From Candidatus Pacearchaeota archaeon (GTDB taxonomy: Archaea; Nanobdellota; Nanobdellia; Pacearchaeales; GW2011-AR1), in NCBI GenBank assembly GCA_023133415.1, contig JAGLWM010000003.1, forward strand, positions 10,544 through 74,543: DNA of 64,000 bases, written 5' to 3'. Position 1 is the stretch's first letter, and each line of letters starts with the position of its first letter. A program made the translations under genes and the position numbers. Below, one piece after another: positions 2,820 through 22,924 of the stretch. Under the pieces are notes generated by a model. It did not search any database and was not told where the DNA came from. It saw nothing but the letters and a program-made list of their open reading frames with translations.

Positions 2820-3839
2820 CTATTTCTTTTTAGAAATTTTCTTTTTCACTTTTTTCCTCGCTACCTTTTGCAAATCTACAACCCTATCGTCTTCATCAAC
2901 AATTTCTTTTCTCAAAATTTCCTCAATAATATCTTCCATGGTAATAATTCCTACAAACTCCTTATATCTATTAAATACAATAGCTAAATGAATTCTCTCT
3001 TTAATAAACTGATTAAGAACGGAATCTAAATTTTTCTTATTAGTCACTTCTAATAAATTTGTTCTATAAATATCTTTTACTTTCGCTCCTTTCTTAACTC
3101 CGACTAAGTCTTTTGAATAAAGAATCCCGACGAGGTTATCAATTTTCTTTTTATAAATAGGGATACGAGTAAATCCTGAATCCTTAATATTTTTCAATAT
3201 CTCTTCAGTTAAGATGGCGTCTACTTCAAGTGAAAAAACAACTATTCTGGGGGTCATCACGTCTTCGACATTTTTTTTCGAAAAGGAAAGTGCACCGAGT
3301 ATTATTTTCTCTTCGTCAGAATCAATACTGGATTTTGATGAATCTTCATGAAGTCTAATAATTTCCTCTAACTCATGTCTCGACCAGATTGTTGGCATCT
3401 CCTCACCAAGTATTTTGTCTAATACTTTTGCAATTGGCCAACAAATAGGATACAAAATAAATATCAAGCCTTTAACTATCCAAACCGTTTTAGCACCGAC
3501 GGTTAAAGCATAACGAGAAACGGTTGCTTGCGGAATAATTTCTCCAAAAATAACAATAAGACCTGTAGCAATTACTCCTGCAAAAACTCCATTGGCAATA
3601 CTCCCAAGAAAAAGTGCAATAGCAGAATTCACCGCCACATTTCCCAACAATAAAGTACAAAGTAGCAAATTACCCCTTTTACGAACACTATATACTTTCT
3701 TGGCTTTTTTATCACCAAGTTTAATCTTACGCTCCAACTCTGTCTTATCTAACCCAAGTAATCCAAGTGTTAAACCTGAAAAAAGACCAGATAAAGAAAC
3801 CAAAATAATGATAATGATAATAACCCAACACTCTACCAT
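2820..3839 (-). CDS. CNNM/CorC-type transporter (DUF21 membrane domain + CBS pair)
   Basis: Hydrophobic N-terminal half, then CBS-like segments (MTPRIVVFSL..., HLAIVFNRYKEFVGIITMEDIIEEI). Confidence 0.8.
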   Translation of the reverse strand: MVECWVIIIIIILVSLSGLFSGLTLGLLGLDKTELERKIKLGDKKAKKVYSVRKRGNLLLCTLLLGNVAVNSAIALFLGSIANGVFAGVIATGLIVIFGEIIPQATVSRYALTVGAKTVWIVKGLIFILYPICWPIAKVLDKILGEEMPTIWSRHELEEIIRLHEDSSKSSIDSDEEKIILGALSFSKKNVEDVMTPRIVVFSLEVDAILTEEILKNIKDSGFTRIPIYKKKIDNLVGILYSKDLVGVKKGAKVKDIYRTNLLEVTNKKNLDSVLNQFIKERIHLAIVFNRYKEFVGIITMEDIIEEILRKEIVDEDDRVVDLQKVARKKVKKKISKKK

Positions 3840-6916: not shown

Positions 6917-7879
6917 ATGAAAAAAGTTAAAGATTTTCTATGGAAACCCGACATGACCGTCGAAGAATTAGTCGACTCATTCGGAAATCTAGGCTACCAA
7001 GCAATCGAACTCAACGAAGCAACAAAAGTCGTCCTTAAAATGAAAAGGACAAACACAAAAATTTTCCTAACCTTCACATCAAATATGGTAACTTCCGGTC
7101 TACGCGGGCTATTCGCACAACTCTGCTCCCTCAAAATCCCAAACATCCTCATCACAACATCCGGCGCAATCGAAGAAGACATTATGAAATCTTTAGGAAT
7201 AGACTTCGAAATCTCATCCTTCCACGCAGACGACACCGCACTCCACGAAAAAGGCGAAAACAGAATCGGCAACCTGATAATACGAACCGAGTCCTACATG
7301 AAATTCGAAGACGAAATGATAAAATACCTAAACAAAGTATACCAAAAAAAGCAAAGAATCTCAACATCAGAACTACTACACGAGATAGGTATACTAATCA
7401 AAGACGAAAATTCAATCCTCCACCAAGCCGCAAAAAACAACATCCCAATCTATTGCCCCGGAATAGCCGATTCCTCATTCGGATTTCAACTTTTCATGTT
7501 CCAACAAAAAAACCCAGACTTCATCGTAGACACAATCCTCGACATGCAAAGAATAGTAACAGACCTCTCATTCGACGAAAAAAAAGGACTAATCTCTTTA
7601 GGTGGTTCAATCTCAAAACACTACGCAGTATTCGCTGCCCTCCTCTCCGGCGGCCTCGACTACGCAATCTACATGACAACATCCCATGCAACATCCGGCT
7701 CAATGTCAGGCGCAACCACACAAGAAGCAAAGTCATGGGGCAAAATCAAGGACGATGGACAAGCCGCAACAGTAAATGGAGATGTCTGCATAACATTTCC
7801 ACTATTAATAACCTCAACTCTGGATAAAATGAAAAAAGAAGGACTACTAAAAAATAACCAAGCTCATGAAAAATTATAA
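6917..7879 (+). CDS. dys: Deoxyhypusine synthase
   Basis: TSNMVTSGLRG, ITTSGAIEEDI, LGGSISKHY and EAKSWGKI motifs. Confidence 0.9.
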   Translation: MKKVKDFLWKPDMTVEELVDSFGNLGYQAIELNEATKVVLKMKRTNTKIFLTFTSNMVTSGLRGLFAQLCSLKIPNILITTSGAIEEDIMKSLGIDFEISSFHADDTALHEKGENRIGNLIIRTESYMKFEDEMIKYLNKVYQKKQRISTSELLHEIGILIKDENSILHQAAKNNIPIYCPGIADSSFGFQLFMFQQKNPDFIVDTILDMQRIVTDLSFDEKKGLISLGGSISKHYAVFAALLSGGLDYAIYMTTSHATSGSMSGATTQEAKSWGKIKDDGQAATVNGDVCITFPLLITSTLDKMKKEGLLKNNQAHEKL

Positions 7880-8253: not shown

Positions 8254-9309
8254 ATGAACCCATATTTTTCTCTCTCAAAATCCAAACTCCTAGATCAAAT
8301 CAAAGTCCTAGAAGACTTAGGATTAAAAATCTCCTACTCATACAAAACCAACCGACAAATCGGCGACATCCTCCAAGAACTCAACATTCCTGAAAACAAA
8401 CCGACAACCGTACATTTTTCCATTCATGCAAAAAAAGAAATAAACATGATAAAAGACAAAACCAAAATTTCATTCTTTACCCAAGCAGAATCCATAGAAG
8501 AACTAAAAGAAATAATTAGCCAAGGAATTACAACCTTTGTAATCGACAATGAATTAGATCTAGAAAAAATTCTAAAAGCCACAGAAGAAACAAATATAAA
8601 AATAAATCTTTCTCTAAGAATGAAATTCCAAGAACACAGAATCGGCACCGGAAAATATTTCGTCTACGGCATGCCCTCCAAAAAAGTAAACGACCTAATC
8701 TCAAAACTAAAAAATAATCCCCAAATAAACCAACTTGGAATCCACATCCACCGAAAATCTCAAAACACATCCGAATGGGAAATCGTCGAAGAACTTCAAG
8801 ACTCCCTAACACAAGAAACACTTTCAACAATCTCAATCCTCAACCTAGGCGGCGGACTCCCTGTCCAATACAAATCCTACACAAACTCAACTCTGCCATA
8901 CATTCTCAAAAAAATATCCAATGCAAAAGAATTCCTAGATAAATATAACATCCAAACAATAATCGAACCAGGCAGATTCCTAGCAGCTCCGCCGATCAAA
9001 CTCCGCACAAACATAATCCAAATCCAAGAAAACAACATCATCCTAAACACAACAATCTACAACTGCGCCCTAGACAACGTCCTAACCGAAACAAAAATGC
9101 TCGTTAAAGAAGAAATCCCAGAAGAACAGGAAGGACAATATTATCTTCTCAAAGGAAACTCTCCAACACGAGACGACATTTTCAGATACAAAGTCAAACT
9201 AACAGACCCAAAAGTCGGAGACGAGATAACATTCATAAACGCAGGCGCCTACAATTACACAACCGATTTTTTCGGATATAAAAAACTGGAAACAAAAATA
9301 ATAGAATGA
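8254..9309 (+). CDS. PLP-dependent Orn/DAP/Arg decarboxylase (likely arginine decarboxylase)
   Basis: SYSYKTN (PLP-Lys context), LNLGGGLPVQY and IIEPGRFLAAP motifs. Overlaps the agmatinase gene. Confidence 0.75.
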   Translation: MNPYFSLSKSKLLDQIKVLEDLGLKISYSYKTNRQIGDILQELNIPENKPTTVHFSIHAKKEINMIKDKTKISFFTQAESIEELKEIISQGITTFVIDNELDLEKILKATEETNIKINLSLRMKFQEHRIGTGKYFVYGMPSKKVNDLISKLKNNPQINQLGIHIHRKSQNTSEWEIVEELQDSLTQETLSTISILNLGGGLPVQYKSYTNSTLPYILKKISNAKEFLDKYNIQTIIEPGRFLAAPPIKLRTNIIQIQENNIILNTTIYNCALDNVLTETKMLVKEEIPEEQEGQYYLLKGNSPTRDDIFRYKVKLTDPKVGDEITFINAGAYNYTTDFFGYKKLETKIIE

Positions 9310-10055
9310 AACTGTATTCAACTAATAGGATTAACGCACTAGGACTAAAAGGTCCAGAAAAAACACCACAAGAAATCACAAAATTCACAAATCACTCAAT
9401 AGAACAAATCATACTAGATAACGACAACATCCAAGAATCCCAAAACCTTCTCTATAAAAAAGCAAAACAAATCTTCAACCAAAATCAAAAATCAGTCTTC
9501 ATCGGAGGAGACCACTCAATAACATACCCAATCTTCAAGGCCTTCCAAAAGACAACACATGATCCATTCCTAATAATATTCGACGCCCACGCAGACTGCA
9601 TGCCACCAAGCCAAGAACCAACACACGAGGAATTCTTAAGAGCAATCATCGAAGACGGATTCCCTTCAGAAAAAATAATTCTAATCGGAGCAAGAAAAAT
9701 CGAACCAGAAGAACAAGAATTCCTAATAAAACACAACATAAAAATCTTCAACGAAATTCTAAATATGGAGACAGCAGCAGATTACATAACGGAAAAAGCA
9801 AACAACCATAACCTATACATCTCAATCGACATCGACGCACTCGACCCAGCCTTCGCACCAGCAGTCAACTATCCAGAACCAGCTGGACTTACATCAAAAG
9901 AATTCTTCTACATCCTAAAAAGATTACTCCATATAAAATCCCTAAAAGCCATCGACATAGTAGAAGCAGTTCCCCAAAAGGACCAAAACTATGACAACAG
10001 AACCCTACGAACAATCGCAAAAATCATTGACGAAGCCGCAAAAATTCTCAAATAA
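9306..10055 (+). CDS. speB: Agmatinase / ureohydrolase family
   Basis: GGDHSITYP, FDAHADC and SIDIDALDPAFAP metal-binding motifs. Confidence 0.8.
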   Translation: MKLYSTNRINALGLKGPEKTPQEITKFTNHSIEQIILDNDNIQESQNLLYKKAKQIFNQNQKSVFIGGDHSITYPIFKAFQKTTHDPFLIIFDAHADCMPPSQEPTHEEFLRAIIEDGFPSEKIILIGARKIEPEEQEFLIKHNIKIFNEILNMETAADYITEKANNHNLYISIDIDALDPAFAPAVNYPEPAGLTSKEFFYILKRLLHIKSLKAIDIVEAVPQKDQNYDNRTLRTIAKIIDEAAKILK

Positions 10056-10065
10056 GGACAAACCA

Positions 10066-10148
10066 CACAACATCCGACTCAAGGCACAACCACACAAGAA
10101 GCAAAGTCATGGGGCAAAATGAAAAAAGAAGAATTGCTGGACAAAAAT
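10066..10148 (+). pseudogene. Fragment duplicating the 3' end of the DHS gene
   Basis: 10087-10120 is identical to 7713-7746 (CAACCACACAAGAAGCAAAGTCATGGGGCAAAAT). It continues with ATGAAAAAAGAAGAATTGCTGG, matching 7829-7850 after an internal deletion. Confidence 0.6.
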
Positions 10149-10194
10149 TTTCATTCAATAAAAACGCCAAACAAAAAAACAATATTAAACCGAT

Positions 10195-11160
10195 TTAAAA
10201 AACATCAGGCAACATCTTAGGACCCAATTCTTTTTCAATATCAACTAATTCGTATTCAATTAAATTTTCTGCAAAAGTTTCCTTTATTTTATTAATTTCT
10301 CTTTTAAGCTCTTCAGGATGCTTATAAATTATTTGAAACATTGTATTAAATTTTCCAATATTTAATGAAAAGGCGTGCACCCTGTCTCTTTGTTTAGCAT
10401 AAACCAACAATTTATTTTGAAACAACTTAGATAAATTATTCATCTTGATATTCATTAAAGTTAAATTATACCCAATTACATCCAGATTAAGAAAAATTCT
10501 ATAACCAAGAATCATATTTTTTTCAATACGTTTTAAACGATAATTTATTGTTTCAATTTTTGATTTAACTTTGTGTGCTAATTCAACAATTTTTATATTT
10601 GCATTTTTTGCAAGAATATATAATATTTTTTTATCTAAGTCATCTAAAATAATTGGTTTGCTTTCTGTATAACTTAAGGTTTTATCGTGTTCTATTTTAC
10701 CAAAAATTTTTAATGGAAAATAATGGGTTTCAATTGGCTCAAGAATTTCATAGTCCAATAATTCGTGTTTCCATAATTCATAAAGATAAGAAATAAGTTC
10801 TAAAATATTTTTTTTGTCTTTTGTAAAAATAGAAATCATATAATCCCATTGTCCATAACAAAATATTCGCGTGAAGATTAAAATGTTTTTCAGATTATTT
10901 ATTTCAGCTAATTTTTTTATCTGAGGATTTTTCACCCTTAGTTTAATAATATAATTTTTGTCATAACCAAGTGCATGTAAATTAATTCCTGCAAGATATT
11001 TATCAATTAATCCGGATTTTTCATATTTCTTAATTCTGTATTCTGCTTGTTCTCTTGAAATTCTGCGTTTTTTCGCAATCTGAGTTATAGGAGTTCTAAA
11101 GTTATGGAAAATATAACTGAGCAATTTCTTATCAATTTTATCTAATTTTAATTCCTGCAT
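10195..11160 (-). CDS. Tandem-duplicated Lrp/AsnC-type transcriptional regulator
   Basis: Two HTH modules: DKIDKKLLSYI...ISREQAEYRIKKYEKSGLI and DDLDKKILYILAKNANIKIVELA...INYRLKRIEKN. Divergent from the peptide operon. Confidence 0.7.
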   Translation of the reverse strand: MQELKLDKIDKKLLSYIFHNFRTPITQIAKKRRISREQAEYRIKKYEKSGLIDKYLAGINLHALGYDKNYIIKLRVKNPQIKKLAEINNLKNILIFTRIFCYGQWDYMISIFTKDKKNILELISYLYELWKHELLDYEILEPIETHYFPLKIFGKIEHDKTLSYTESKPIILDDLDKKILYILAKNANIKIVELAHKVKSKIETINYRLKRIEKNMILGYRIFLNLDVIGYNLTLMNIKMNNLSKLFQNKLLVYAKQRDRVHAFSLNIGKFNTMFQIIYKHPEELKREINKIKETFAENLIEYELVDIEKELGPKMLPDVF

Positions 11161-11309
11161 ATTTTGATAAAGAGTAAGATGTTTTTAAAGTTTACTAATT
11201 AACTTAAAATTCATTATATTATTTCACTTAGTTTAGTAAAATTTAATCAAAACCTTTAATTTGGTTTAATACTTAATAATAGTAATTAAATTAAGGAGAC
11301 AAAAATAAA

Positions 11310-11525
11310 ATGGCAATAGGATGGTCAGGAAGTAGCGGAGGAGTAGGAGAAGCTTATAGGAAATTTCTTTTGATAGATGTAGAAGCAGGAATTAATAAAT
11401 ATAAATCTTTGTATGAAAATATTTCTGAACAACAAGTTGAAGCAAGGAAATTTTATCAAAAAGCAATTACTGGATTAGGGAAACTAAAACAAGAAATGAT
11501 TAAAGATTTGGAAGGGAGAGTATAA
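11310..11525 (+). CDS. Small peptide A (71 aa, Cys-free), candidate radical SAM substrate or partner
   Basis: MAIGWSGSSGGVGEAY... is a paralogue of the next ORF: 21 of the first 34 residues identical by hand alignment. AAGGAG lies upstream. Confidence 0.6.
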   Translation: MAIGWSGSSGGVGEAYRKFLLIDVEAGINKYKSLYENISEQQVEARKFYQKAITGLGKLKQEMIKDLEGRV

Positions 11526-11526
11526 G

Positions 11527-11730
11527 ATGGCAATGGGATTTTCAGGAAGTAATGCAGGAATTGGGGAAATTTATAAAAAAGTTTTGTATGTAGATGTGGA
11601 AGCAGGGATAAGAAAATATCAGGAGTTATTGCCCGAAGTTAGTGAAAATGTTAAACCTCTTTATGAAACTACAATTAAGAATTTAGAATTATTACTTTCT
11701 CAAATGCAAGAGTTTGGAGTGAGGAAATAA
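11527..11730 (+). CDS. Small peptide B (67 aa, Cys-free), paralogue of peptide A
   Basis: MAMGFSGSNAGIGEIY...DVEAGIRKY. Starts 1 nt after the stop of peptide A. Confidence 0.6.
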   Translation: MAMGFSGSNAGIGEIYKKVLYVDVEAGIRKYQELLPEVSENVKPLYETTIKNLELLLSQMQEFGVRK

Positions 11731-11731
11731 A

Positions 11732-12790
11732 ATGGCAGTAGGATTTTTAGGAAGTAACGGGGAAATAGAAAAAGGAAAGAATTTCGCAAAAGTAGATTTA
11801 TTAAACAGACCTTTAGAAGTTTCTTATTTTGTAAATAATTTATGCAATCTTAATTGTAAACATTGTTATGTTGGTTATTCTAATCCAAATGATGATTTAA
11901 GCATTCAAGAATGGAAAAATACTTTTGATGAATTAATTGATTTGGGAGCATTAACTTTTGGGAATGTTGGGAGAGAGCCGTTATTGGCTTGGGAAAAAAC
12001 AAGTGGACTCTTAAAATATTTTCAGGATAAAAAAGCGAAAAATCCAAAATTACGTTATGGATTAGTTACAAATGCCACGCTATTTAATGAAGAAAAAATA
12101 AAAAGATTAAATGAACTTAATCCTGATTATTTAGATATTAGTATAGACGGCACAGAGCAGATACATGATTTTATCAGAGGAAAAGGAAATTACCAAAGAG
12201 CTTATAAAAATCTCCAGGAAATCAAAGAAACTGCTCCAAATTTATTAAATAAAATTTTTATTAGTTATACTTTAATGCAACCAAATAAAAATACTCTTAA
12301 AGAAACAATTCAAGAAATGAACCAATTAGGAATAAATAATTTTTTGATTTCTCCTTATGTTAAAACAATTCATGATGAAGGAAATTTGGGATTAGATAAT
12401 TCGGAAATTGCAGATATTTATGAAAATATTAAAATAGGAAATACAGTTGATTTTTCAAAGACAAAAAATTTAGAGATTCTTTTAAAGTCAGATTATGATA
12501 CACAAAAAGATTTAATGGATTTATTAGTAAAAAGAAAAATAATCAATGTTGACAATTTATTAATTGATGAATACGGAGTTATTTTTAATAAAGAAGAAAA
12601 AGAAAATAATTCAAAAATAATTTTAAATTTCATTCCAATTCCAGAAACTTTAACACGGGCTATAAGAATTAGTCATGATGGATATGTTGGAGGATGTGAA
12701 GAAATGTTCCACGAAAATTACCCAGAATTAACAGTAGGAAACATAAAAGAAAAAAGTATCACAGAAATTCTAGGCAACAAAAATCCTTAA
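11732..12790 (+). CDS. Radical SAM enzyme (no SPASM/twitch cysteines)
   Basis: CX3CX2C (CNLNCKHC), GREPLL, LVTNATL and ISIDG motifs. Only one further Cys in the protein. N-terminus MAVGFLGSNGEI repeats the peptide motif. Starts 1 nt after the stop of peptide B. Confidence 0.85.
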   Translation: MAVGFLGSNGEIEKGKNFAKVDLLNRPLEVSYFVNNLCNLNCKHCYVGYSNPNDDLSIQEWKNTFDELIDLGALTFGNVGREPLLAWEKTSGLLKYFQDKKAKNPKLRYGLVTNATLFNEEKIKRLNELNPDYLDISIDGTEQIHDFIRGKGNYQRAYKNLQEIKETAPNLLNKIFISYTLMQPNKNTLKETIQEMNQLGINNFLISPYVKTIHDEGNLGLDNSEIADIYENIKIGNTVDFSKTKNLEILLKSDYDTQKDLMDLLVKRKIINVDNLLIDEYGVIFNKEEKENNSKIILNFIPIPETLTRAIRISHDGYVGGCEEMFHENYPELTVGNIKEKSITEILGNKNP

Positions 12791-12825
12791 ATATACCCCA
12801 TCTTCTTATTTGTTATAATCCTTCC

Positions 12826-13005
12826 CCGTTCCATCCTCTCAAAATCCAAACTCCTAAAACAACTCAAAATCCTCACCAACCTAAACCTCGAAATCTCCTA
12901 CTCCTACAAGTCTAACCGGCAAATTGGCAACATCTCTAAAAACCCAATGCTTCCAAAAACAACCAACACCAAATCTCTCGAGAAACCCCATTTCTCATCA
13001 ACCCC
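12826..13005 (+). pseudogene. Fragment duplicating the 5' end of the decarboxylase gene
   Basis: Translates as SLSKSKLLKQLKILTNLNLEISYSYKSNRQIGNI, versus FSLSKSKLLDQIKVLEDLGLKISYSYKTNRQIGDI at 8254 onward. There is no start codon and it decays downstream. Confidence 0.6.
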
Positions 13006-13060
13006 GCCCCTTTACTCTCAAATAAACGCAGACAAACCACACAACATTTACCTGACACCT

Positions 13061-13219
13061 CTATCCTCTAATAGTCGCAAGACTATCTTCAATAAAAAAC
13101 GTCCGCCTAGCAATCTCTGCAGCATGTCCAACGCCACACGACTCAAGCTCACGAAACATTCTCCGCGCGCGCTCTAACTTATCCATAAAAACCTCCATCT
13201 CCCATTTAATTCCCAACAT
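13061..13219 (-). CDS. Small hypothetical ORF (52 aa)
   Basis: Own translation MLGIKWEMEVFMDKLERARRMFRELESCGVGHAAEIARRTFFIEDSLATIRG. Its ATG abuts the stop of the upstream RHH-like ORF (TAAATG). Confidence 0.25.
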   Translation of the reverse strand: MLGIKWEMEVFMDKLERARRMFRELESCGVGHAAEIARRTFFIEDSLATIRG

Positions 13220-13423
13220 TTACTCATTCAACCCCACTCCCTTTTCTTCCAAAAACTTCATCACAGCACTATCAACGAAATTCCTCTTAGAAGGAAACTC
13301 CACCCGAATCTTCTTACTAGAAATATAACCCTCAATCGCCTCATCCAACCACCGACTAATCCGAACCGCCGTATCACTTCTCTTGCTCGATTGGATTACC
13401 ATAAATAAACTAATGGTTACCAA
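13220..13423 (-). CDS. Ribbon-helix-helix (CopG-like) protein, tentative
   Basis: TAVRISRWLDEAIEGYI...SKRNFVDSAVMKFLEEKG fits a strand-helix-helix pattern. Confidence 0.4.
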   Translation of the reverse strand: MVTISLFMVIQSSKRSDTAVRISRWLDEAIEGYISSKKIRVEFPSKRNFVDSAVMKFLEEKGVGLNE

Positions 13424-13503
13424 CGATATATAAATGTTTTGATTTTTAATAATATTAAATAACTTCTAGCACAGAAAACTCATTTAAATTTATCTTCTAT
13501 TAT

Positions 13504-13899
13504 TTATATAAAACCAACTATTCTTTCCAATTGTTTTATGTCGTACCTACTTCCTGCTTTTTCCCTAGCTATTTCATAAGCCCTATCTTTACAAACTTTC
13601 ATAGCTTCTTTCTCTTGACCTCTCACATCAAGCAAATTATAGTCAGGTCTAACTCTCGGATGACAATTTATATTAGGTAAAAGTAAATTTTCATTTGAAT
13701 CATAGATAGCAGGACCTTCTACTACCACAAATCTATCTTTGGGAAGTTTAGTTCCAGAAAATCCTTTAGAATAAAATACATCTCTCCCCTTAACTAAACC
13801 AAACAATCCAGTAGGCCAGTTCACTCTAAAACCGTTTTCCGCTTTGTATACTTTAACAAGTTTTTGTTTTTCCATTTTTTTTGACTTCAACCACTTCAA
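13504..13899 (-). CDS. Hypothetical protein
   Basis: ORF only. Confidence 0.45.
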   Translation of the reverse strand: MKWLKSKKMEKQKLVKVYKAENGFRVNWPTGLFGLVKGRDVFYSKGFSGTKLPKDRFVVVEGPAIYDSNENLLLPNINCHPRVRPDYNLLDVRGQEKEAMKVCKDRAYEIAREKAGSRYDIKQLERIVGFI

Positions 13900-13963
13900 T
13901 TAATTTAGGGATGACTGCGTATATTCCAGAAGATATTTTATATCCTTTAGAATCAAATTTATT

Positions 13964-14476
13964 TTATTCTTTTACAATTTCCCTAAGTTTCATTTTTTTT
14001 GTTTTTCCTACTTCAGGTACAAGGCAAAGAGTTCCCGTGAGAGTTGTTATGACAGATCCAATTAAAGTCCACCACGCATTTTTTCCCGCCTTCTCGACAG
14101 AACTAAAATACGCTTGAGATATATCATTTTCTCTCATCTCCCTAACTTCTCCTTGGAGGTTTTCTATTATTTTTGAATATCCTTTTGCAACTTCTTCTAA
14201 TAGGGGTTTAGTTGTATTCATTTGCCTTTCCAAATTCCGTGGGACGTATTTTATTTCATAACCAGCCCCATATCTAGAACGTTTTGAAAATAAATCTTCT
14301 CTTTTATCTTCAAAATATCTAATGGTTGAAACTGCATTATAATATTTTTTAACAATCTCTGGTTGTTTTTGATGGCAACTACCAATGGGTATTGCAGCAA
14401 AGATTCCTAACATTCCAAGGAGAGCTATTGAAACCCCTACACTTTCTAGTTTTTTTGTTAAGGTTTTATATCTCAT
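13964..14476 (-). CDS. Hypothetical membrane protein (N- and C-terminal TM helices)
   Basis: VGVSIALLGMLGIFAAIPIGSC near the N-terminus and WWTLIGSVITTLTGTLCLV near the C-terminus. Confidence 0.5.
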   Translation of the reverse strand: MRYKTLTKKLESVGVSIALLGMLGIFAAIPIGSCHQKQPEIVKKYYNAVSTIRYFEDKREDLFSKRSRYGAGYEIKYVPRNLERQMNTTKPLLEEVAKGYSKIIENLQGEVREMRENDISQAYFSSVEKAGKNAWWTLIGSVITTLTGTLCLVPEVGKTKKMKLREIVKE

Positions 14477-14562
14477 CTTACCCTCAAGTAAATTCTGTAT
14501 TTATATCTATGTTGTTAAATTTTTTTCACAACTTTTAAAAACCATAAATTCTTTTATAAAAT

Positions 14563-15291
14563 ATGAATACAGAAATTGTAAAAAAAACCCTTGAAGAACT
14601 TAATTTTGATAAAAAAGAAACAGAAATATATTTAGCCTTGTTGAAAATAGGCGAAACCACTGCGACAAAAATATCCCGAGAGACAAAAATAGAAAGAACT
14701 CTTGTTTATTACATCATTGAAAAATTAACTAATAGAGGTTTAGTTAATTTTAAACTGAAAAACAATGTAAAATATTATTCTTCTTCAAATCCTGAAAAAA
14801 TCTTGGAGGAAATCAAAGAAAAAGAAATTTCATTCAGAAAAATACTTCCCTATTTAGAACAAATAAAAAATCAAACGTATGAGGAGGAAATTAAGGTTGA
14901 TATTTACAAAGAGTTCGCAGGATTAAAAACCGTCACGAATGAAATATTTAAAGATAACAAAAAATTCTTTATATTAGGAGAACAAGGACAGGTTCAAATT
15001 AATTACCCAGAATATTCCGAACAATATCTTAGGAGATTAAAAGAAAATAAAATTAAAGAAAAAGTTATTGTAAGAGAAGATTTGCGAGGAAAAATCAAAA
15101 AATCAAAAAACTCGCAATTCAAATATATTTCTAAAAATTTACTAAGCCCAACAACCACCTTAATTTGCAATAATAAAATTTTAATCACAATCTGGGAAAA
15201 ACCTACATTTAATATTTTAATTACAAGTAAAAAAATCGCAGATTCATATAAAGCATATTTCAATCATTTCTGGAAAATTGCTAAAAAATAA
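14563..15291 (+). CDS. TrmB-family transcriptional regulator
   Basis: LNFDKKETEIYLALLKIGETTATKISRETKIERTLVYYIIEKLTNRGLV. Paralogue of 22211 and 60592. Confidence 0.8.
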   Translation: MNTEIVKKTLEELNFDKKETEIYLALLKIGETTATKISRETKIERTLVYYIIEKLTNRGLVNFKLKNNVKYYSSSNPEKILEEIKEKEISFRKILPYLEQIKNQTYEEEIKVDIYKEFAGLKTVTNEIFKDNKKFFILGEQGQVQINYPEYSEQYLRRLKENKIKEKVIVREDLRGKIKKSKNSQFKYISKNLLSPTTTLICNNKILITIWEKPTFNILITSKKIADSYKAYFNHFWKIAKK

Positions 15292-15332
15292 TCTTTCCCC
15301 TTCAATTCAAAATCCAGAAACACTCCCAAAAC

Positions 15333-15402
15333 AGCGCGAACTCAGAGCGCAACAAAAAACCCGAATACCGAACAGCGAAGCGCCCTAATACCAAATACCT
15401 AA
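15333..15402. repeat. Composite element: AGCGCGAACTCAGAGCGCAAC head plus 7-nt-period tract
   Basis: The head at 15333-15353 matches 44364-44384 at 20 of 21 positions. Units follow: CCGAATA CCGAACA GCGAAGC GCCCTAA TACCAAA TACCTAA. Confidence 0.6.
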
Positions 15403-15409
15403 ACAATCG

Positions 15410-15685
15410 CTACCACGCAACATTCTTCGGTTCCCGTCGAACATACTGAAAATCCTCAATCAACTCATAAATCTCAATCGAACTCTCAACCTGATCATCA
15501 AAATACCGAACCTGATACTCTCTCTCATTCTCCGGATTAAACATCTCAATAATCATCTCCTTCGTATCCCCATGATCCTGAAACAAATACTGCTTATCAA
15601 CCTTCATCTCCTTCCCATTAATAAAAAACACATCACCCTCTCCTAACTTCCTAATATCCTTCGACCGCTTCAAAATCTCAACCAT
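15410..15685 (-). CDS. Hypothetical protein
   Basis: ORF with backbone-type composition. TTTATAAA lies about 25 nt upstream on the minus strand. Confidence 0.5.
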   Translation of the reverse strand: MVEILKRSKDIRKLGEGDVFFINGKEMKVDKQYLFQDHGDTKEMIIEMFNPENEREYQVRYFDDQVESSIEIYELIEDFQYVRREPKNVAW

Positions 15686-17366: not shown

Positions 17367-18059
17367 ATGGAACGAATCCAAAAAATCATCGCCAACTCGG
17401 GTTATTGTTCACGAAGAAAAGCCGAAGAATTAATAGAACAAGGAAAAGTAAAACTGAATAACAAAATAGCAAAACTCGGCGACAAAGCAAATCCAGAAGA
17501 CAAAATCACAATTAACGACTCCCCTCTCAAAAAATCAAACATAAAATCCTACTTCATCCTAAACAAACCAAAAGGTATCCTCGTAACAAAACACGATCCC
17601 AAAAACAGAAGAACAATTTACAATCTAAAATCAATCTCAAAAAATATCCCAACCCTAAACCATGTAGGCAGACTCGACGCAATGTCCGAAGGCCTCCTTA
17701 TCCTAACAAACGACGGCAACTTGATACAAAAACTCACTCACCCAAAACATGCCATCACAAAAACCTACCAAGTCCGAACCGAACCAATCCTCAAAAAACA
17801 AGACATCACCAATTTAAAATCAGGTATCCTCATAGACGACCGAAAATTCTACGCCACAATTTCCAACATCAAAAACAACACCTTTCATGTCTCAATCCAA
17901 GAAGGCCGAAACCGAATCATCCGCCGAGTCCTCGAAAAACTTAACTACAAAATATACCAACTCAAAAGAATCTCAATAGCAAACATAAAATTAGAAAACC
18001 TAAAGTCAGGAGAAATAAAAGAAATCTCAGAAGAAAAAATCAAGCAGTTAATTTTATAA
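17367..18059 (+). CDS. RsuA/RluB-family pseudouridine synthase with S4 domain
   Basis: IANSGYCSRRKAEELIEQGKV (S4 domain) and GRLDAMSEGLLILTNDG (catalytic Asp motif). Confidence 0.8.
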   Translation: MERIQKIIANSGYCSRRKAEELIEQGKVKLNNKIAKLGDKANPEDKITINDSPLKKSNIKSYFILNKPKGILVTKHDPKNRRTIYNLKSISKNIPTLNHVGRLDAMSEGLLILTNDGNLIQKLTHPKHAITKTYQVRTEPILKKQDITNLKSGILIDDRKFYATISNIKNNTFHVSIQEGRNRIIRRVLEKLNYKIYQLKRISIANIKLENLKSGEIKEISEEKIKQLIL

Positions 18060-18086
18060 GTTAATTCCAAGTTAATATATCACCCA

Positions 18087-18158
18087 GAGCTCGTAGTTTA
18101 ATGGATAGAATATCAGGTTTCGGCCCTGACGATGGGGGTTCGATTCCCTCCGAGCTCG
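18087..18158 (+). tRNA. tRNA-Arg (anticodon TCG)
   Basis: Hand-folded cloverleaf: acceptor GAGCTCG/CGAGCTC, anticodon stem TCAGG/CCTGA with loop TTTCGGC, T arm GGGGG-TTCGATT-CCCTC. No encoded CCA. Confidence 0.85.
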
Positions 18159-18256
18159 TAATCGAAGCCCCATGATGGGGGCGAACAATTTGCTCGAATT
18201 TTTCTGATTTCTTTTAATTCAAATTATCAGAAAAATTTTAGAGTGAATTGTGAGTA

Positions 18257-18300
18257 GATTCCCTCCGAGCTCGTAATCGAAGCCCCATGATGGGGGCGAA
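18257..18300 (+). repeat. 44-nt perfect direct repeat of the tRNA-Arg 3' end and trailer (att-like)
   Basis: 18142-18185 equals 18257-18300 (GATTCCCTCCGAGCTCGTAATCGAAGCCCCATGATGGGGGCGAA). The 71-nt spacer holds a 12-bp perfect inverted repeat at 18197-18208 / 18226-18237. Confidence 0.85.
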
Positions 18301-18422
18301 TAAAACGCTTTGAGACTAAACAATTTTATATCTTCTATTGAATAATACATCCAATAAACTTTTCGATTCTTCTAAATCAACAAAACAAAAACTTATAAAG
18401 AAAATTATATTTATAATTTATT

Positions 18423-19793
18423 ATGAAAGAAAATCATGATTTATTAAACGAAAAAGATTTAATGAATTTTGATGTTTACTTTCCTCCTTTTAGATATTGG
18501 TCAAAAAATAATTTATCGGATTCTACTCAACTAAATAATCTAATATCAAAAGAAAAAATAAATGAAGGAAATATTTACATACATTTTCCCTTCTGTCCAT
18601 TACAGTGTAAAATTTGCCCCTACCTTAAATTGACAAATGAACACATCATAGAAGTTTCAAATTTGATAATCGAAGAAATAAAATTATATGGTCAACTTTA
18701 TAAACGACAAACTAAAATTAGAAGTATACTTATTGGAGGAGGAACACCCAATTTTATACCAGAAATATTTTTTGAAAAAATGTTAACTTCTCTTAAAAAT
18801 AATTTTATGTTAGAAGATATGAAACAATTTGCTATAGAATTAAGACCCGGAATAGAATATAAAAAACATATTGAAATTTTATTGAAATTTTTTAAACCCG
18901 GAATTCTACATATTAGCTTAGGATTACAATCTTCCTACAGCGAAAAAATTAAACTCTGGAGAAAACCCGCAAAAGGGAAAGGGTTATACTATTCAAAAGA
19001 AGATATAGAAAAAATGATATTATTTCTCCATGAAAAAGAAATAAAAAATATAAATATAGATTTCATGGTTGAAAATACAAATGCATTTTTAGAAGAAAAA
19101 AATTATATAAAAAAATTGATAAAAAAATTTAATATTAATAAAATTTCGATATATACCATCTATTCAAAATTTATGGGAAGAAAATATACAAAAGAGGTTT
19201 CTCAATGGAATTTTAAAGAAGTAATTGATCTTAGAAAAGAAGAATTAAAAATTTTTAAATCATTGAATTTTAATCCCCTAATTTGGCCAATATACTTTGT
19301 CAAAAAAGGATTTAAAGCCAATCTTGAATCTTTAACTCAATTTGAAGGCAAAACACTATTTGCTATTGGACCAAGTGCAAGAGGAACGATTAGAACGAAC
19401 AATTTATTTTTAATATATGAAAACTCTAAAAATCTTACAAAATACAAAAAAAATATTTTAAATAATGAATTTCCTATTTCTTTACTTTATGAATATCCAA
19501 AAAATATTGACAAAAAAATAAGCGATAATTTAAGAGAAATATATACAAACTATAAAGAAGGCTTTTCCAGAGATGCAATAAAAGAAATTATGAAACTTGC
19601 CAAATTAGGACAGCAAGATGAGATATTAAAAAAGATACTAAAAAATTACTTTAAACAAAAACATAATAAACTGTATTTAAATACAAAAGGTCTTTATTTA
19701 ATAGATGCTGTTTATTGGGCATTATGGAAAACAATAGAAAAAGGTTTTGATATTAAAAATAAAAAATTTATCAAAATTTCCAAACTAAATTAA
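18423..19793 (+). CDS. HemN/HemW-like radical SAM protein
   Basis: HFPFCPLQCKICPY (CX3CX2C) and IGGGTPN motifs. Low-GC island composition. Confidence 0.75.
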   Translation: MKENHDLLNEKDLMNFDVYFPPFRYWSKNNLSDSTQLNNLISKEKINEGNIYIHFPFCPLQCKICPYLKLTNEHIIEVSNLIIEEIKLYGQLYKRQTKIRSILIGGGTPNFIPEIFFEKMLTSLKNNFMLEDMKQFAIELRPGIEYKKHIEILLKFFKPGILHISLGLQSSYSEKIKLWRKPAKGKGLYYSKEDIEKMILFLHEKEIKNINIDFMVENTNAFLEEKNYIKKLIKKFNINKISIYTIYSKFMGRKYTKEVSQWNFKEVIDLRKEELKIFKSLNFNPLIWPIYFVKKGFKANLESLTQFEGKTLFAIGPSARGTIRTNNLFLIYENSKNLTKYKKNILNNEFPISLLYEYPKNIDKKISDNLREIYTNYKEGFSRDAIKEIMKLAKLGQQDEILKKILKNYFKQKHNKLYLNTKGLYLIDAVYWALWKTIEKGFDIKNKKFIKISKLN

Positions 19794-19891
19794 TAATTAT
19801 TTTTAATCTTCCCCAAAAATCCTATCCATAACCGCACCGTTCCCCCGTTCCCAAACACTGCTGATAGATCGTTGAACCACCCAAGAATCAA

Positions 19892-21211
19892 TCAAGGATA
19901 AAAATATCTTTCTATCATATCTGCACAAATCCAACCCTCGTCAGTCAATTTTAATTTGTTTCTCTCTTTAGATTCCACGAAACCTAGTTTTCTAATTTTT
20001 GTCAACTTTCCTTCCACTTCTACAGTTAAATTACCAAATCTTTTTTGATATTCTTTAATATCAAGTTTTCCTTTTTGAGTTAAATTTTGGATAAGACATC
20101 TTGCTTCATTATCTCTCTTAGAAAGTTTAAATTGTTTTTCACCAGGGATTTTTTTACTTTCTACCGCCAAAGAATATTTAATTAATCCCTGTTTATTTTT
20201 AAAAAGATAATCTCCAATTTGAGATACTGCAGAAGAACCAAAACCAAGAACAAAACCTTTTCTCTGATTATTTCTTTGATCTGAAGTTGGTGCAGATTTA
20301 TATTTTTTAGACTTTGCCAAATAGTCTTTTTTAACAAAATGCAGGGGTCGAGTTTGACTATATCTTGCATCGATTAAGAAATCTCTTGCATTGGCAAACA
20401 TAGAAAGTTGTTTTTCTAAATCATTTTCATAATCTCTTAAATGAGCCGAGGGGTTAATTCTAAGATGATACAATGTAAATTCGGGAACTCCCTTCCTAAC
20501 CAATGTTCTCACATCACTCAAAAAAGAACTTTCCGTTTGGCTTGGAAGACCATATATTAAATCCATATTAAAAATAGCAATTCCAGACTCCCTCAATCGT
20601 TTAATTGCATCAAGTGATTGTTGAGAAGAATGTGCTCTACCTAATTTTTTTAATAACCTATCTTCCAAAGTTTGTGCTCCCATACTTATTCTATTAACGC
20701 CTTTTTGTAATAACAATTCAACTTTTTCAGCAGTACATGTTTCAGGACTAGTTTCAACAGTAAATGATCCCTCATTCTGTAATGGGAAACTTTGAGATAC
20801 ATAATCAATTAGTTCTCCCAGCAAATTTTTATTCAATCTTGTGGGTGTTCCACCCCCAAAATAGATACTTGCTCCGCAAGAAACCGAAGAAGATATCTTA
20901 TCCGTTCGCAAATCCATTTCTTTTTTTAAATTATCAGTATACCTTTTTTGTTCTTCAACCGATTTTCCAACATTTGTATCATAAAAACAATATGAACATC
21001 CAGAACTACAAAAAGGAATATGAACATAAATTTGAGGATAGCTTTTTGGAACATTCAACAAATTTTGATCATAGTCTTTTTTTCTAAACCTATCCCATTT
21101 TGACAGTATAGAAAGAGGATATGTATTAGCTACTTCTCCTTCAGTCATTGGTCTGGCTAATTGATTAATCTTCAATTTCTCAACCAAATTTTTCATATTT
21201 GTCGTTTTCAT
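19892..21211 (-). CDS. HemN-like radical SAM protein
   Basis: HIPFCSSGCSYC, YFGGGTPT, NRISMGAQT and NMDLIYGLP motifs. Confidence 0.8.
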   Translation of the reverse strand: MKTTNMKNLVEKLKINQLARPMTEGEVANTYPLSILSKWDRFRKKDYDQNLLNVPKSYPQIYVHIPFCSSGCSYCFYDTNVGKSVEEQKRYTDNLKKEMDLRTDKISSSVSCGASIYFGGGTPTRLNKNLLGELIDYVSQSFPLQNEGSFTVETSPETCTAEKVELLLQKGVNRISMGAQTLEDRLLKKLGRAHSSQQSLDAIKRLRESGIAIFNMDLIYGLPSQTESSFLSDVRTLVRKGVPEFTLYHLRINPSAHLRDYENDLEKQLSMFANARDFLIDARYSQTRPLHFVKKDYLAKSKKYKSAPTSDQRNNQRKGFVLGFGSSAVSQIGDYLFKNKQGLIKYSLAVESKKIPGEKQFKLSKRDNEARCLIQNLTQKGKLDIKEYQKRFGNLTVEVEGKLTKIRKLGFVESKERNKLKLTDEGWICADMIERYFYP

Positions 21212-22125
21212 TTTTCATCCTTTTCACAAACAAAAACCTTATTTCTCCAAATGTAAGGGTTGCCAAATGTTATTTTTATTTCCCCAGTATTTAGATCTTG
21301 AACTTGTCGCAATCTAGAAAGAAATTCAATATCTGTGATCGAGGAATTTGGTTTTGTCAAAAAATTATTTTCAGTTCCAATTAATTCAATTTGATTAATA
21401 TTTGCATTAGAAAGCTTCCATTTTTCTTTGGACATACCCAAAGTTATTTCCTCATAATAATTTTCAGAAGAAAGAATTCTTAATCCATTATTTTTCAACA
21501 TTTTCTCCAATTCTTTATCATGGACAACATATTTTTTATGAAATTTTTTTCCCTTTGAAATACTTTTTTCTATCTCATTTAGTATTTTAGATTTATATTC
21601 TGCTTGAAAAGGAGTCTGTTCACAAAGAGCTCCTAATACTAAAATTCCATTTTCAACTAAATAATTTGGAAGTTTTGATATTACTTCTTCATTTTCTTTT
21701 GCGTTAAAACAATGGAGAACTTTTCTCATTGAAGCAATATCATATTTTTCAGAGATCCCCATAAGAACATCGTGCTTTAAGAAACGAATCAGTTTATTCG
21801 GAATTTTTAATTTTTCAGATTCTGCTGCGACTCCCTCTAATTGTCTCGGATTAATGTCATAAACATCTAATTTGCCCTCTATCCCCAAATCCATAACTGT
21901 TCTAAGCAATGCGCATCCTACAATCCCGGAACCACCTCCGATATCCACTATTTTATATCTTTTTCTTCGATTTTGTTGGACAAATCTTCTAATCGGGTTT
22001 TGGTAATATCTTAAGTTTTGGTAATATGCACCTCCTAAAGTTTTACCAAACTCTGCCCCAGCTATTCTTTCGTGTCTTAATGTTGTCGATTCTTGTTCGC
22101 TTTTCATTTTATTAATTGTTCTCAC
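21208..22125 (-). CDS. Class I SAM-dependent methyltransferase
   Basis: Motif I IVDIGGGSGIVG. Overlaps the downstream HemN-like gene by 4 nt. Confidence 0.75.
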   Translation of the reverse strand: MRTINKMKSEQESTTLRHERIAGAEFGKTLGGAYYQNLRYYQNPIRRFVQQNRRKRYKIVDIGGGSGIVGCALLRTVMDLGIEGKLDVYDINPRQLEGVAAESEKLKIPNKLIRFLKHDVLMGISEKYDIASMRKVLHCFNAKENEEVISKLPNYLVENGILVLGALCEQTPFQAEYKSKILNEIEKSISKGKKFHKKYVVHDKELEKMLKNNGLRILSSENYYEEITLGMSKEKWKLSNANINQIELIGTENNFLTKPNSSITDIEFLSRLRQVQDLNTGEIKITFGNPYIWRNKVFVCEKDEK

Positions 22126-22210: not shown

Positions 22211-22924
22211 ATGGACAAAGAATCACTTACTAAAATTGGATTAACAAAGGCAGAATCAATTATTTATCTCTCTTTACTCAAGCTTGGAGATGTTCCTGTA
22301 AAAGATTTATCAAAGGATACAGGATTTCATAGAACCAATATTTACGACATACTGGAGCAACTCAAAGAAAAAGGACTAGTTAGTTTTTCTAAGCAAGGGA
22401 AAATTCTTTATTACAAAACTACTGACCCAAAGAATCTTCTTAATCTATTGGAAGAGAAAAAAGAAATTTTAATAAATTTAATGCCGGATTTAGATAAACT
22501 AAATAATATTAATAGAAAGAAAATAAATGTTTCAATTTTTAAAGGAAAAGAAGGAATGAAATCTGTCTTTAATGACATAAGAAGAGAAAAGGGAGAAATT
22601 TTTGGATTAGGAATCAAGGGTCAATTAAGAGATCGGCTTCCAATCTATGCTAAACAATTTTTAAGAGATTTGAAATTATCCAAGAGAAAATATTACGGAC
22701 TTTATGATAAAAAAGAAAATATCTCCCCCATTTTTACCGAAATTAGAATTCTTCCAAAGAATGTTTCAATACCCGTCGCCACACATATTTATTCTAACAA
22801 AGTTTTAATAACAATTTGGGAACCCGACCTAATTGCTATTCTTATTGAAGCCAATAAAGTAGCAGAAACTTATAAGTCGCATTTTAATCTCCTGTGGAAT
22901 ATTTCAAGAACAGTCAAACAATGA
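22211..22924 (+). CDS. TrmB-family transcriptional regulator
   Basis: IGLTKAESIIYLSLLKLGDVPVKDLSKDTGFHRTNIYDILEQLKEKGLV. Divergent from the methyltransferase operon. Confidence 0.8.
   Translation: MDKESLTKIGLTKAESIIYLSLLKLGDVPVKDLSKDTGFHRTNIYDILEQLKEKGLVSFSKQGKILYYKTTDPKNLLNLLEEKKEILINLMPDLDKLNNINRKKINVSIFKGKEGMKSVFNDIRREKGEIFGLGIKGQLRDRLPIYAKQFLRDLKLSKRKYYGLYDKKENISPIFTEIRILPKNVSIPVATHIYSNKVLITIWEPDLIAILIEANKVAETYKSHFNLLWNISRTVKQ

Follow-up and report, generated by a model that had tools for sequence, protein, structure and literature searches.

A radical SAM enzyme family with a conserved, detachable N-terminal tail that is shared with small proteins of DPANN archaea

Introduction

In the mycofactocin (MftA/MftC) and pyrroloquinoline quinone (PQQ; PqqA/PqqE) systems, a strongly conserved short peptide and a dedicated radical S-adenosylmethionine (SAM) enzyme occur together across phyla. 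These systems comprise SPASM clusters, a partner with a recognition element (RRE) for RiPPs (peptides made on ribosomes and modified after translation), namely MftB or PqqD, and downstream tailoring or peptidase genes. In borosins of the OphMA type, a SAM methyltransferase carries its own substrate peptide as a C-terminal extension; split and fused versions exist, and the peptide is released by a protease. The activases of glycyl-radical enzymes are radical SAM enzymes that act on a Gly residue within RVxG[FYW], and the spare-part protein GrcA/YfiD has a copy of this terminal radical motif. Here, we describe a cassette located in a 64,000-nucleotide (nt) stretch of DNA from a Candidatus Pacearchaeota archaeon (contig JAGLWM010000003.1, positions 10,544 to 74,543), hereafter called the window. 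Two small proteins, PepA and PepB, are encoded directly upstream of a radical SAM enzyme and share with it a 12-residue N-terminal tail. Source data were metagenome-assembled sequences throughout.

The cassette differs from all of these systems. SPASM clusters, an RRE partner and tailoring or peptidase genes as in the mycofactocin and PQQ systems are absent. Borosins are based on a methyltransferase instead of a radical SAM enzyme, and their core is C-terminal, whereas the tail described here is N-terminal. What sets it apart is a detachable tail borne by the enzyme itself, a feature without precedent among peptide-associated radical SAM enzymes.

The N-terminal tail

The cassette genes lie one behind the other on the + strand. 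pepA (11310-11525, 71 amino acids (aa), subtype A) and pepB (11527-11730, 67 aa, subtype B) encode the small tail carriers and are followed by the gene of the radical SAM enzyme (11732-12790, 352 aa). All sequence-level statements of the initial annotation proved correct; as it describes, the genes are separated by a single nt: G 11526 between the pepA stop codon (11523-11525) and the pepB ATG (11527), and A 11731 between the pepB stop codon (11728-11730) and the enzyme ATG (11732). Purine-rich sites precede all three starts (AAGGAGA at 11293-11299 for pepA, GGGAGA at 11514-11519 for pepB and GGAGTGAGG at 11716-11724 for the enzyme gene). In our reading, pepA and pepB are translationally coupled to the enzyme gene. 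The tail reads MAIGWSGSSGGV in PepA (11310-11345), MAMGFSGSNAGI in PepB (11527-11562) and, in a degenerate form, MAVGFLGSNGEI in the enzyme (11732-11767). The likeness between the first 12 codons of the enzyme gene and the first codons of pepA and pepB, which had been noted before, was confirmed, and a regular expression for the shared N-terminus matched these three starts alone when all six frames of the window were searched.

The shared tail was initially regarded as unusual. Rather than an oddity of this one enzyme, it is a family hallmark across bacteria and archaea, to which the free peptides are an addition confined to DPANN archaea. The consensus is MA-x-G-[FLWI]-S-G-S-N-G-G-[IV], and 111 of 120 enzyme homologues contain the strict motif. 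Five of the other nine are near-variants, and at least one of the remainder (P0076) has a mis-called start, with locus L020 encoding the same protein including the tail. G4, S6, G7, S8 and G11 are near-invariant and positions 9-10 more tolerant. Position 5 is occupied by F, W, L or I in the enzymes and by F, W, I or L in the peptides, with an additional Y in one peptide (L006). The earlier proposal of a C-C or C-O crosslink at a conserved aromatic residue is not supported: since position 5 can be Ile or Leu, an aromatic crosslink cannot be the conserved chemistry.

The motif was found at the N-termini of enzymes and small proteins only. Among the enzymes it is separated from the cluster motif by 25-74 residues, a variable distance as expected for a tether. 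In the predicted structures, the tail is disordered on both the enzyme (residues 1-13) and PepA (residues 1-9). Tandem tails are present on the enzymes P0027 and P0171 and on the peptides P0121-P0123, P0155, P0169, P0172 and in L090, and might be compared to multi-core precursors. Because an internal Met-Ala is retained in them, in-frame fusion of adjacent tail-bearing genes would be the simplest explanation. The Gly, Ala, Ser, Leu and Ile codons of the tail vary synonymously across loci; it is thus the peptide, rather than an RNA element, that is under selection. An RNA-level cause of the shared 5' ends was rejected on the basis of these synonymous codons and of an Rfam scan of 9500-15500, which yielded a sub-threshold small nucleolar RNA match only.

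The tail can be supplied in cis or in trans. Among the enzymes, it is lost or damaged in 6 of 14 peptide-bearing lineages and in none of the peptide-less loci, where it is intact in 18/18 cases (Fisher p = 0.003, kinship ignored). In L033/L099, an unrelated extension replaces the tail of the enzyme, and two peptides are encoded upstream. The L102 enzyme (P0090) really does lack a tail, since a stop codon immediately precedes its start; here, a 36-aa open reading frame (ORF; 3477-3587) encoding MAMGLSGSNGGIKSSNIRRISFEEIQDLKKNLIVNK (MAMGLSGSNGGIK..., also written MAMGLSGSNGGIKSS...) starts 1 nt after the enzyme stop codon. This ORF is the sole case seen of a carrier 3' of the enzyme gene, and it has no hairpin domain. 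The tail of the L103 enzyme (P0025) is shortened to MALGLSGQ, and two peptides are encoded upstream. In L104, a tail-less enzyme (P0018) is preceded by an ORF that is cut by the contig edge and ends 13 nt before the enzyme start.

Substitutions at near-invariant positions are confined to peptide-bearing loci. They were found in the enzymes of L013 and L096, both peptide-bearing, and in that of the window, which carries S6L and G11E at positions that are S in 109/111 and G in 106/111 enzymes. P0002, P0003 and P0005, close relatives of the window's enzyme, keep S6 and G11, so that the decay of its tail is recent. The tails of PepA and PepB are better copies than that of the enzyme, each varying at the tolerant positions 9-10. 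Considering the decayed enzyme tail, PepA and PepB are therefore probably the working tail carriers. Given this cis/trans complementarity, the catalytic domain has an obligatory partner in the tail, either on the same or on a separate polypeptide.

The small proteins PepA and PepB

PepA and PepB are paralogues without any Cys residue. A residue-by-residue recount agreed with the 21 identities among 34 N-terminal residues reported initially; overall, the two proteins are 42% identical. In the AlphaFold2 (AF2) model of PepA, the disordered tail is followed by a predicted helical hairpin (H10-36/H43-68) with a pLDDT (predicted local distance difference test) of ~98. A fold search with this model retrieved generic helical hairpins alone, with a best E value of 0.65 and no significant relative, and Pfam and NCBIfam scans of both proteins returned no match. 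The family comprises 35 matches among 5.8 billion proteins, exclusively in DPANN archaea, and 29 clusters in an exhaustive hidden Markov model search of 1.84 billion representatives. Two subtypes can be distinguished, A-like (..EEQ.E.R.FY..AI.GL) and B-like (..VKPLY..). Homology to the enzyme N-terminus extends to approximately residue 25, up to a conserved Asp and a hydrophobic residue.

All members of the peptide family for which flanking sequence is available adjoin a gene of the same radical SAM family, usually with a gap of 0-2 nt. Thus, the small ORFs recur beside the enzyme in other DPANN archaea; tail-bearing small ORFs adjoin the enzyme gene in the window, L004, L006, L012-L014, L033, L090-L099 and L100-L103. 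Selection was analysed using relatives whose enzymes are 81-84% identical to that of the window. The ratio of nonsynonymous to synonymous substitution rates (dN/dS) was 0.36 for pepA (vs L100), 0.30-0.35 for pepB and 0.19-0.22 for the enzyme gene; the regulator gene of the cassette (see below) reached 0.10 against its L100 orthologue, to which it is 90% identical. With values of 0.30-0.36, pepA and pepB are therefore real genes under purifying selection.

The radical SAM enzyme

The enzyme is a member of the radical SAM superfamily (Pfam Radical_SAM, PF04055; 73.1 bits vs a cutoff of 29.5, E = 3.9e-20). It has four Cys residues. C38, C42 and C45 form the CxxxCxxC motif (11843-11866, +) and are invariant among 71 homologues. 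C322 (12695-12697, +), located in DGYVGGC, is the family's single invariant non-cluster Cys. According to Pfam, residues 308-349 make up part of a SPASM domain (24.9 bits vs a cutoff of 21.5). The SPASM/twitch pattern CX9-15GX4C ... CX2CX5CX3C is absent: C322, which lies in a G-x4-C remnant, is the sole Cys outside the SAM motif. The initial description of an enzyme with one further Cys and no SPASM motif thus holds for the ligands, with the partial domain as one correction. The C-terminal domain is SPASM-derived in its fold, has lost the cluster ligands and does not bind a cluster. Because there is just one Cys outside the SAM cluster, no auxiliary Fe-S cluster is possible.

More than 260 homologues were found, which are 38-58% identical to the window's enzyme. 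Their hosts are DPANN archaea, bacteria of the candidate phyla radiation (CPR/Patescibacteria) and anaerobic bacteria (such as Brocadia, Scalindua, Desulfobacteraceae, Rhodothermaceae, Magnetococcales, Methyloglobulus). In a set with one genome per species, about 24 of 185,579 species carry the family. None of the named NCBIfam radical SAM equivalogs (PapB, WgkB, NirJ, AhbC/D, SCIFF, MftC, HxsB and others) matched at its cutoff; all 25 families listed scored far below, the best being PapB with 75.8 bits vs a cutoff of 340. Profile searches, which had been suggested at the outset, therefore assign the enzyme to no housekeeping family. PADLOC reported a generic pVip similarity for the enzyme (47 bits), nothing for the peptides and no system-specific match. 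Among the curated families of Pfam, NCBIfam and PADLOC, none covers the enzyme or the peptides. Neither an enzyme homologue nor the tail pattern was found in IMG/VR, and a viral origin or viral mimics were rejected on this ground. A search of the available literature for the motif strings found no paper, and searches for radical SAM together with SIR2, or with DPANN and RiPP, returned unrelated systems only, Ophion and HXS. The enzyme represents an uncharacterised radical SAM family outside the housekeeping families. A sister family with ~25% identity (L034, L036, L037) has the same single C-terminal Cys and its own conserved N-terminal tail, MPxxSIxNGxTG.

An AF2 model of the enzyme based on a 71-sequence alignment reached a mean pLDDT of 90.6, with residues 1-13 below 50. 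In a Foldseek search, the top structures were CteB (5wgg), SkfB (6efn) and SuiB (5v1t), with TM-scores normalised to query length of 0.58-0.67, followed by viperins and anSME. Altogether, CteB, SkfB, SuiB/StrB, anSME and PapB provided the best structural and PDB sequence matches. The enzyme shares with SPASM/twitch enzymes the CxxxCxxC motif and a C-terminal SPASM-like beta-hairpin with the G-x4-C remnant, and small peptide genes adjoin the enzyme gene in both cases. In contrast to SPASM/twitch enzymes, most members of the family are themselves fused to their putative substrate. As in RiPP systems, a gene for a potential precursor lies beside the enzyme gene; an RRE is lacking. Pfam gave no PqqD/RRE match for the enzyme or for those of its window neighbours that were scanned, and the ~27 residues ahead of the radical SAM core are too few for an RRE. 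Of the RiPP-maturase layout assumed in the initial annotation, the conserved pairing and the maturase-like structures have stood the test, whereas RRE, leader, protease, exporter and variable core are missing.

Genomic contexts and regulators

The enzyme gene was found in three genomic contexts, and common to all of them is the radical SAM core with its tail and nothing else. In DPANN archaea, a divergent gene for an Lrp-type regulator is followed by zero to three tail-bearing small ORFs and the enzyme gene; an Lrp-type homologue is located divergently upstream in 11/11 archaeal loci with upstream sequence. In CPR bacteria, a divergent gene for a winged helix-turn-helix (TrmB-like) regulator precedes the enzyme gene, and there are no peptides. 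In other bacteria, again without peptides, the enzyme gene belongs to a six-gene island that encodes an ABC ATPase (oligo_HPY), the solute-binding protein SBP_bac_5, two BPD_transp_1 permeases, SIR2_2 and the radical SAM enzyme. This island is present in 10/10 loci with upstream sequence: L002 (2690-9089, transposase-flanked), L016-L018, L020, L021, L023, L024, L030 and L032. The enzyme gene is the last of the island. In nine of these loci all six genes are co-directional; in L032, the genes for the ATPase and the solute-binding protein are located downstream on the opposite strand. No known PADLOC system matched the island. In the 64-kb window, no ABC or SIR2 homologue was found. None of the DPANN cassettes encodes a protease or exporter; the bacterial loci have an importer-type ABC system instead. 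In the sister family (L034 7887-12624, L036 7821-12427, L037 7842-12467), the enzyme gene is followed by SBP_bac_5 and two permease-like ORFs. These loci are surrounded by restriction-modification, methylase-helicase, UvrD-like helicase and toxin-antitoxin-like genes.

The regulator gene of the window (10195-11160, -) is transcribed divergently from the cassette and encodes a tandem, two-repeat Lrp/AsnC-type protein. This assignment, already made initially, is supported by two HTH_AsnC-type/HTH_24 matches in Pfam. Full-length structures of archaeal Lrp proteins align with residues 3-122 in phmmer, and among PDB sequences archaeal Lrp/FFRP regulators match best; PF01037 was not detected, and every NCBIfam score was below its cutoff. 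The protein can be read as the cassette's transcriptional regulator. In L103 (1012-1962), the Lrp-type regulator is encoded by two single-domain genes (154 and 128 aa), which suggests that the two-repeat form arose via gene fusion or was split later. The 149-nt intergenic region (11161-11309, GC content 0.161) presumably contains promoters and operators. It comprises a direct repeat, TACTAATTAACTTAA, at 11193-11207 and 11280-11294 as well as an inverted repeat (11185-11198 vs 11233-11246). An operator role for these repeats was discarded: at 16% GC they are indistinguishable from chance.

A TrmB-like regulator is encoded 1.8 kb 3' of the cassette (14563-15291). Distant homologues (26-37% identical) adjoin the cassette in L014/L019 and are located divergently upstream of the enzyme gene in the CPR locus L022. 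With such low identity and loose placement they probably belong to a generic family, and the TrmB-like protein was rejected as a member of the cassette. The translation of ORF 22211-22924 resembles that of 14563-15291 by eye, and it may be another TrmB-like regulator. Between the right flank of the cassette and 14563, the - strand contains three ORFs (13220-14476) of 67 aa, with a weak ribbon-helix-helix-like match, 131 aa and 170 aa. The region 13220-15300 has a GC content of 0.30, below the window average.

Mobility of the cassette

The cassette (10195-12790) has a GC content of 0.24-0.28 and a GC skew of +0.1, compared with a mean GC content of 0.367 and a strongly negative skew for the window. 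It is flanked by two gene fragments: on the left by a 3' part of a deoxyhypusine synthase gene, covering residues 253-280 (10059-10130, +; tblastn, 57% identity over 28 aa), and on the right by a 5' part of a pyridoxal phosphate (PLP)-dependent decarboxylase gene, covering residues 7-47 (12836-12958, +; tblastn, 61% identity over 41 aa, E = 4.5e-10). Just upstream, both genes are also present in intact form, deoxyhypusine synthase at 6917-7879 and PLP decarboxylase at 8254-9309. The fragments look like a scar of acquisition via recombination with a donor locus. In L010, whose radical SAM enzyme is 86% identical, an intact decarboxylase homologue is located directly 3' of the enzyme gene. Relatives with 81-84% identical enzymes carry the cassette at other genomic sites. 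From these other sites and the scars it can be deduced that the module moves and recombines as a unit. In L100 (2995-4462), genes for a phage-type integrase and an HNH/recombinase protein are immediately beside the cassette regulator. L101 has a different regulator allele (35% identical) and an unrelated ORF in place of pepA. By these sequence criteria, the cassette consisting of regulator, pepA, pepB and enzyme gene is horizontally mobile.

Over nearly the whole window, the GC skew of the + strand is between -0.2 and -0.6 in 2-kb bins. The exceptions, near zero or positive, are the cassette region 10001-12000 and the bin 18001-20000. A second low-GC block is found at 18423-22125 (GC 0.27). 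It contains a pair of paralogous radical SAM genes that lack the tail (18423-19793, +, 456 aa; 19892-21211, -, 439 aa) and a methyltransferase gene (21208-22125, -).

What the tail may do

The tail may well be the substrate of the enzyme, tethered to it in most lineages and, in DPANN archaea, also or instead carried by small hairpin proteins; we favour this reading and consider it about evenly balanced between right and wrong. As no other protein co-occurs universally with the tail, its receptor is most simply the radical SAM core. The nearest structures are those of peptide-modifying radical SAM enzymes, tandem tails exist, and the peptides are under purifying selection and packed against the enzyme, all of which supports a substrate. 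We infer that the tail enters the active site and is modified there. The single [4Fe-4S]/SAM site would generate a 5'-deoxyadenosyl radical; with the Gly/Ser-rich tail threaded into the active site, one of the tail residues would lose a hydrogen to this radical. C322 could then complete a redox-neutral reaction such as the L-to-D epimerisation known from PoyD and YydG, or else the radical might persist on a glycine.

As to the kind of modification, a redox-neutral, epimerase-type reaction is our preferred guess, made with low confidence and by analogy. The lack of auxiliary-cluster Cys residues argues against chemistry of the CteB/SkfB/SuiB/anSME type. Proteusin epimerases of the PoyD type combine a radical SAM cluster with one strictly conserved Cys that serves as H-atom donor after C-alpha abstraction, and both proteusin and epipeptide (YydG/EpeE) epimerases act on peptides without requiring a leader (PMC8326336). 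The enzyme matches the PoyD-type pattern of a SAM cluster only and a single conserved Cys. However, it has no detectable specific sequence relationship to PoyD or YydG/EpeE, no epimerase family was among its NCBIfam matches, and the majority of the invariant tail positions are taken by the achiral Gly.

Several points weigh against a substrate role of the tail. The monomer AF2 model left the tail undocked, and such a monomer model is uninformative on binding in the active site. With self-modification in cis, no enzyme molecule could give more than one product, an unusual situation, and neither a protease nor an exporter is encoded for product release. The extreme cross-domain conservation of the tail is atypical of RiPP cores. 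The bacterial Opp-like importer and SIR2_2 are left unexplained and might hint that the substrate is a small molecule or is imported. Nearly as close in structure are viperin, DesII and BlsE, whose substrates are nucleotides or sugars. In addition, the complementarity statistic is based on ~32 partly related metagenome lineages without phylogenetic correction.

The main rival takes up some of these points. Here, the tail is a pseudo-substrate that auto-inhibits the enzyme, and the free peptides inhibit in trans in an antitoxin-like manner, while the true substrate is to be sought elsewhere, for instance among nucleotides, sugar nucleotides or imported peptides. If an otherwise harmful enzyme needs constant restraint, a tail that is obligatory in cis or trans would be expected just as much, and coupled small ORFs upstream of an enzyme on a mobile, compositionally foreign cassette are reminiscent of toxin-antitoxin systems. 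The importers, SIR2 and defence-island-like surroundings of the bacterial and sister homologues as well as the structural proximity of viperin-like enzymes fit this picture, too. Yet, a tethered inhibitor on more than 90% of the enzymes requires an unknown trigger, and neither a signal nor a release mechanism is evident. Tandem tails along with several paralogues of the peptides would be more usual for substrates, PADLOC found no known defence family beyond the generic radical SAM similarity, and homologues on viral contigs are lacking. All in all, we judge a pseudo-substrate to be rather unlikely. It predicts the opposite phenotype of a tail deletion from that predicted for a substrate.

There is a small chance that the modification persists on the detachable tail, either the enzyme's own or that of a 'spare-part' carrier, in the form of a glycyl-type radical or a peptide-derived cofactor or signal. 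The invariant Gly residues of the tail and C322 might then constitute a Gly-radical/Cys-thiyl pair, or a released Gly/Ser-rich product might be re-imported by bacterial relatives via their Opp-like transporter. The tail motif A-[ILVM]-G-[FWLI]-S can be compared to RVxG[FYW] of glycyl-radical enzymes: the Gly is flanked by a hydrophobic and an aromatic residue. By contrast with these enzymes, the motif is N-terminal and without Arg, is located on a disordered tail and not in a barrel, and resides on the activase-like enzyme itself. Pfam Gly_radical (PF01228) did not match the peptides or the enzyme at E <= 0.1.

As a docking or assembly tag, the tail would bring enzyme and small proteins to a common third partner or into a shared compartment, or would mediate a homotypic, strand-like assembly between them. 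A docking tag was considered initially and has become less likely, the radical SAM core being the tail's only universal partner. The motif is short, disordered, rich in Gly, Ser and Asn and common to adjacent gene products, tandem copies could increase avidity, and the ABC transporter and SIR2_2 of the bacterial operons are candidate partners. Against this stands that no partner is kept across the DPANN, CPR and bacterial contexts and that ABC and SIR2 homologues are absent from the window. Furthermore, tail-less enzymes accompanied by tailed peptides (L033/L099, L102) would lose co-targeting or homotypic pairing, and the motif occurs solely at the N-termini of two protein types. We consider such a tag improbable.

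We regard a classical exported RiPP, with PepA and PepB as leader-core precursors that are crosslinked at the aromatic residue and released, as quite improbable. Small ORFs do adjoin a radical SAM gene whose product has RiPP maturases as its closest structures, and PapB and WgkB are the best NCBIfam matches, though far below cutoff. However, position 5 is not invariably aromatic, the motif is at the extreme N-terminus without a leader, and the remainder of the peptide is predicted to be a confidently folded hairpin. RRE, protease and transporter are absent from all DPANN loci, and so are the auxiliary-cluster Cys residues used by the characterised relatives CteB, SkfB, SuiB and anSME. Moreover, the tail is hyper-conserved across domains and not variable.

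A housekeeping tetrapyrrole pathway with an AhbC/AhbD/NirJ-like enzyme and an AhbA/B- or NirDL-like (Lrp-fold) siroheme decarboxylase, to which the appearance of NirJ, AhbC and AhbD among the NCBIfam matches of the enzyme and of AhbA and AhbB among those of the Lrp-like protein had pointed, is effectively refuted: scores are far below cutoffs (NirJ 73 vs 515, AhbD 62.5 vs 500, AhbB 26.5 vs 125), the divergently transcribed Lrp-like protein is closer to true regulators, which are also its PDB matches, the cassette is mobile and patchily distributed, and the bacterial context is unrelated to haem synthesis.

Conclusions and perspectives

Should the tail turn out to be the substrate, no earlier radical SAM family with a substrate peptide of its own would be known to us. 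The natural split and fused versions of this family would then offer a ready means of exploring peptide engagement by radical SAM enzymes that have neither an RRE nor auxiliary clusters. If, instead, a modification persists on the tail, a new class of enzyme with a self-charging radical, or of cofactor or signal derived from a peptide, would be common to the ultra-small symbionts (DPANN archaea, CPR bacteria) and anaerobic bacteria. The unstudied bacterial six-gene island comprising an Opp-like transporter, SIR2 and the radical SAM enzyme might turn out to be a system of defence or signalling of a new kind. The family is among the few accessory modules common to DPANN archaea, CPR bacteria and free-living anaerobes. 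Given its horizontal movement, its function is probably ecological (conflict, signalling or protection, for example) and not part of core metabolism.

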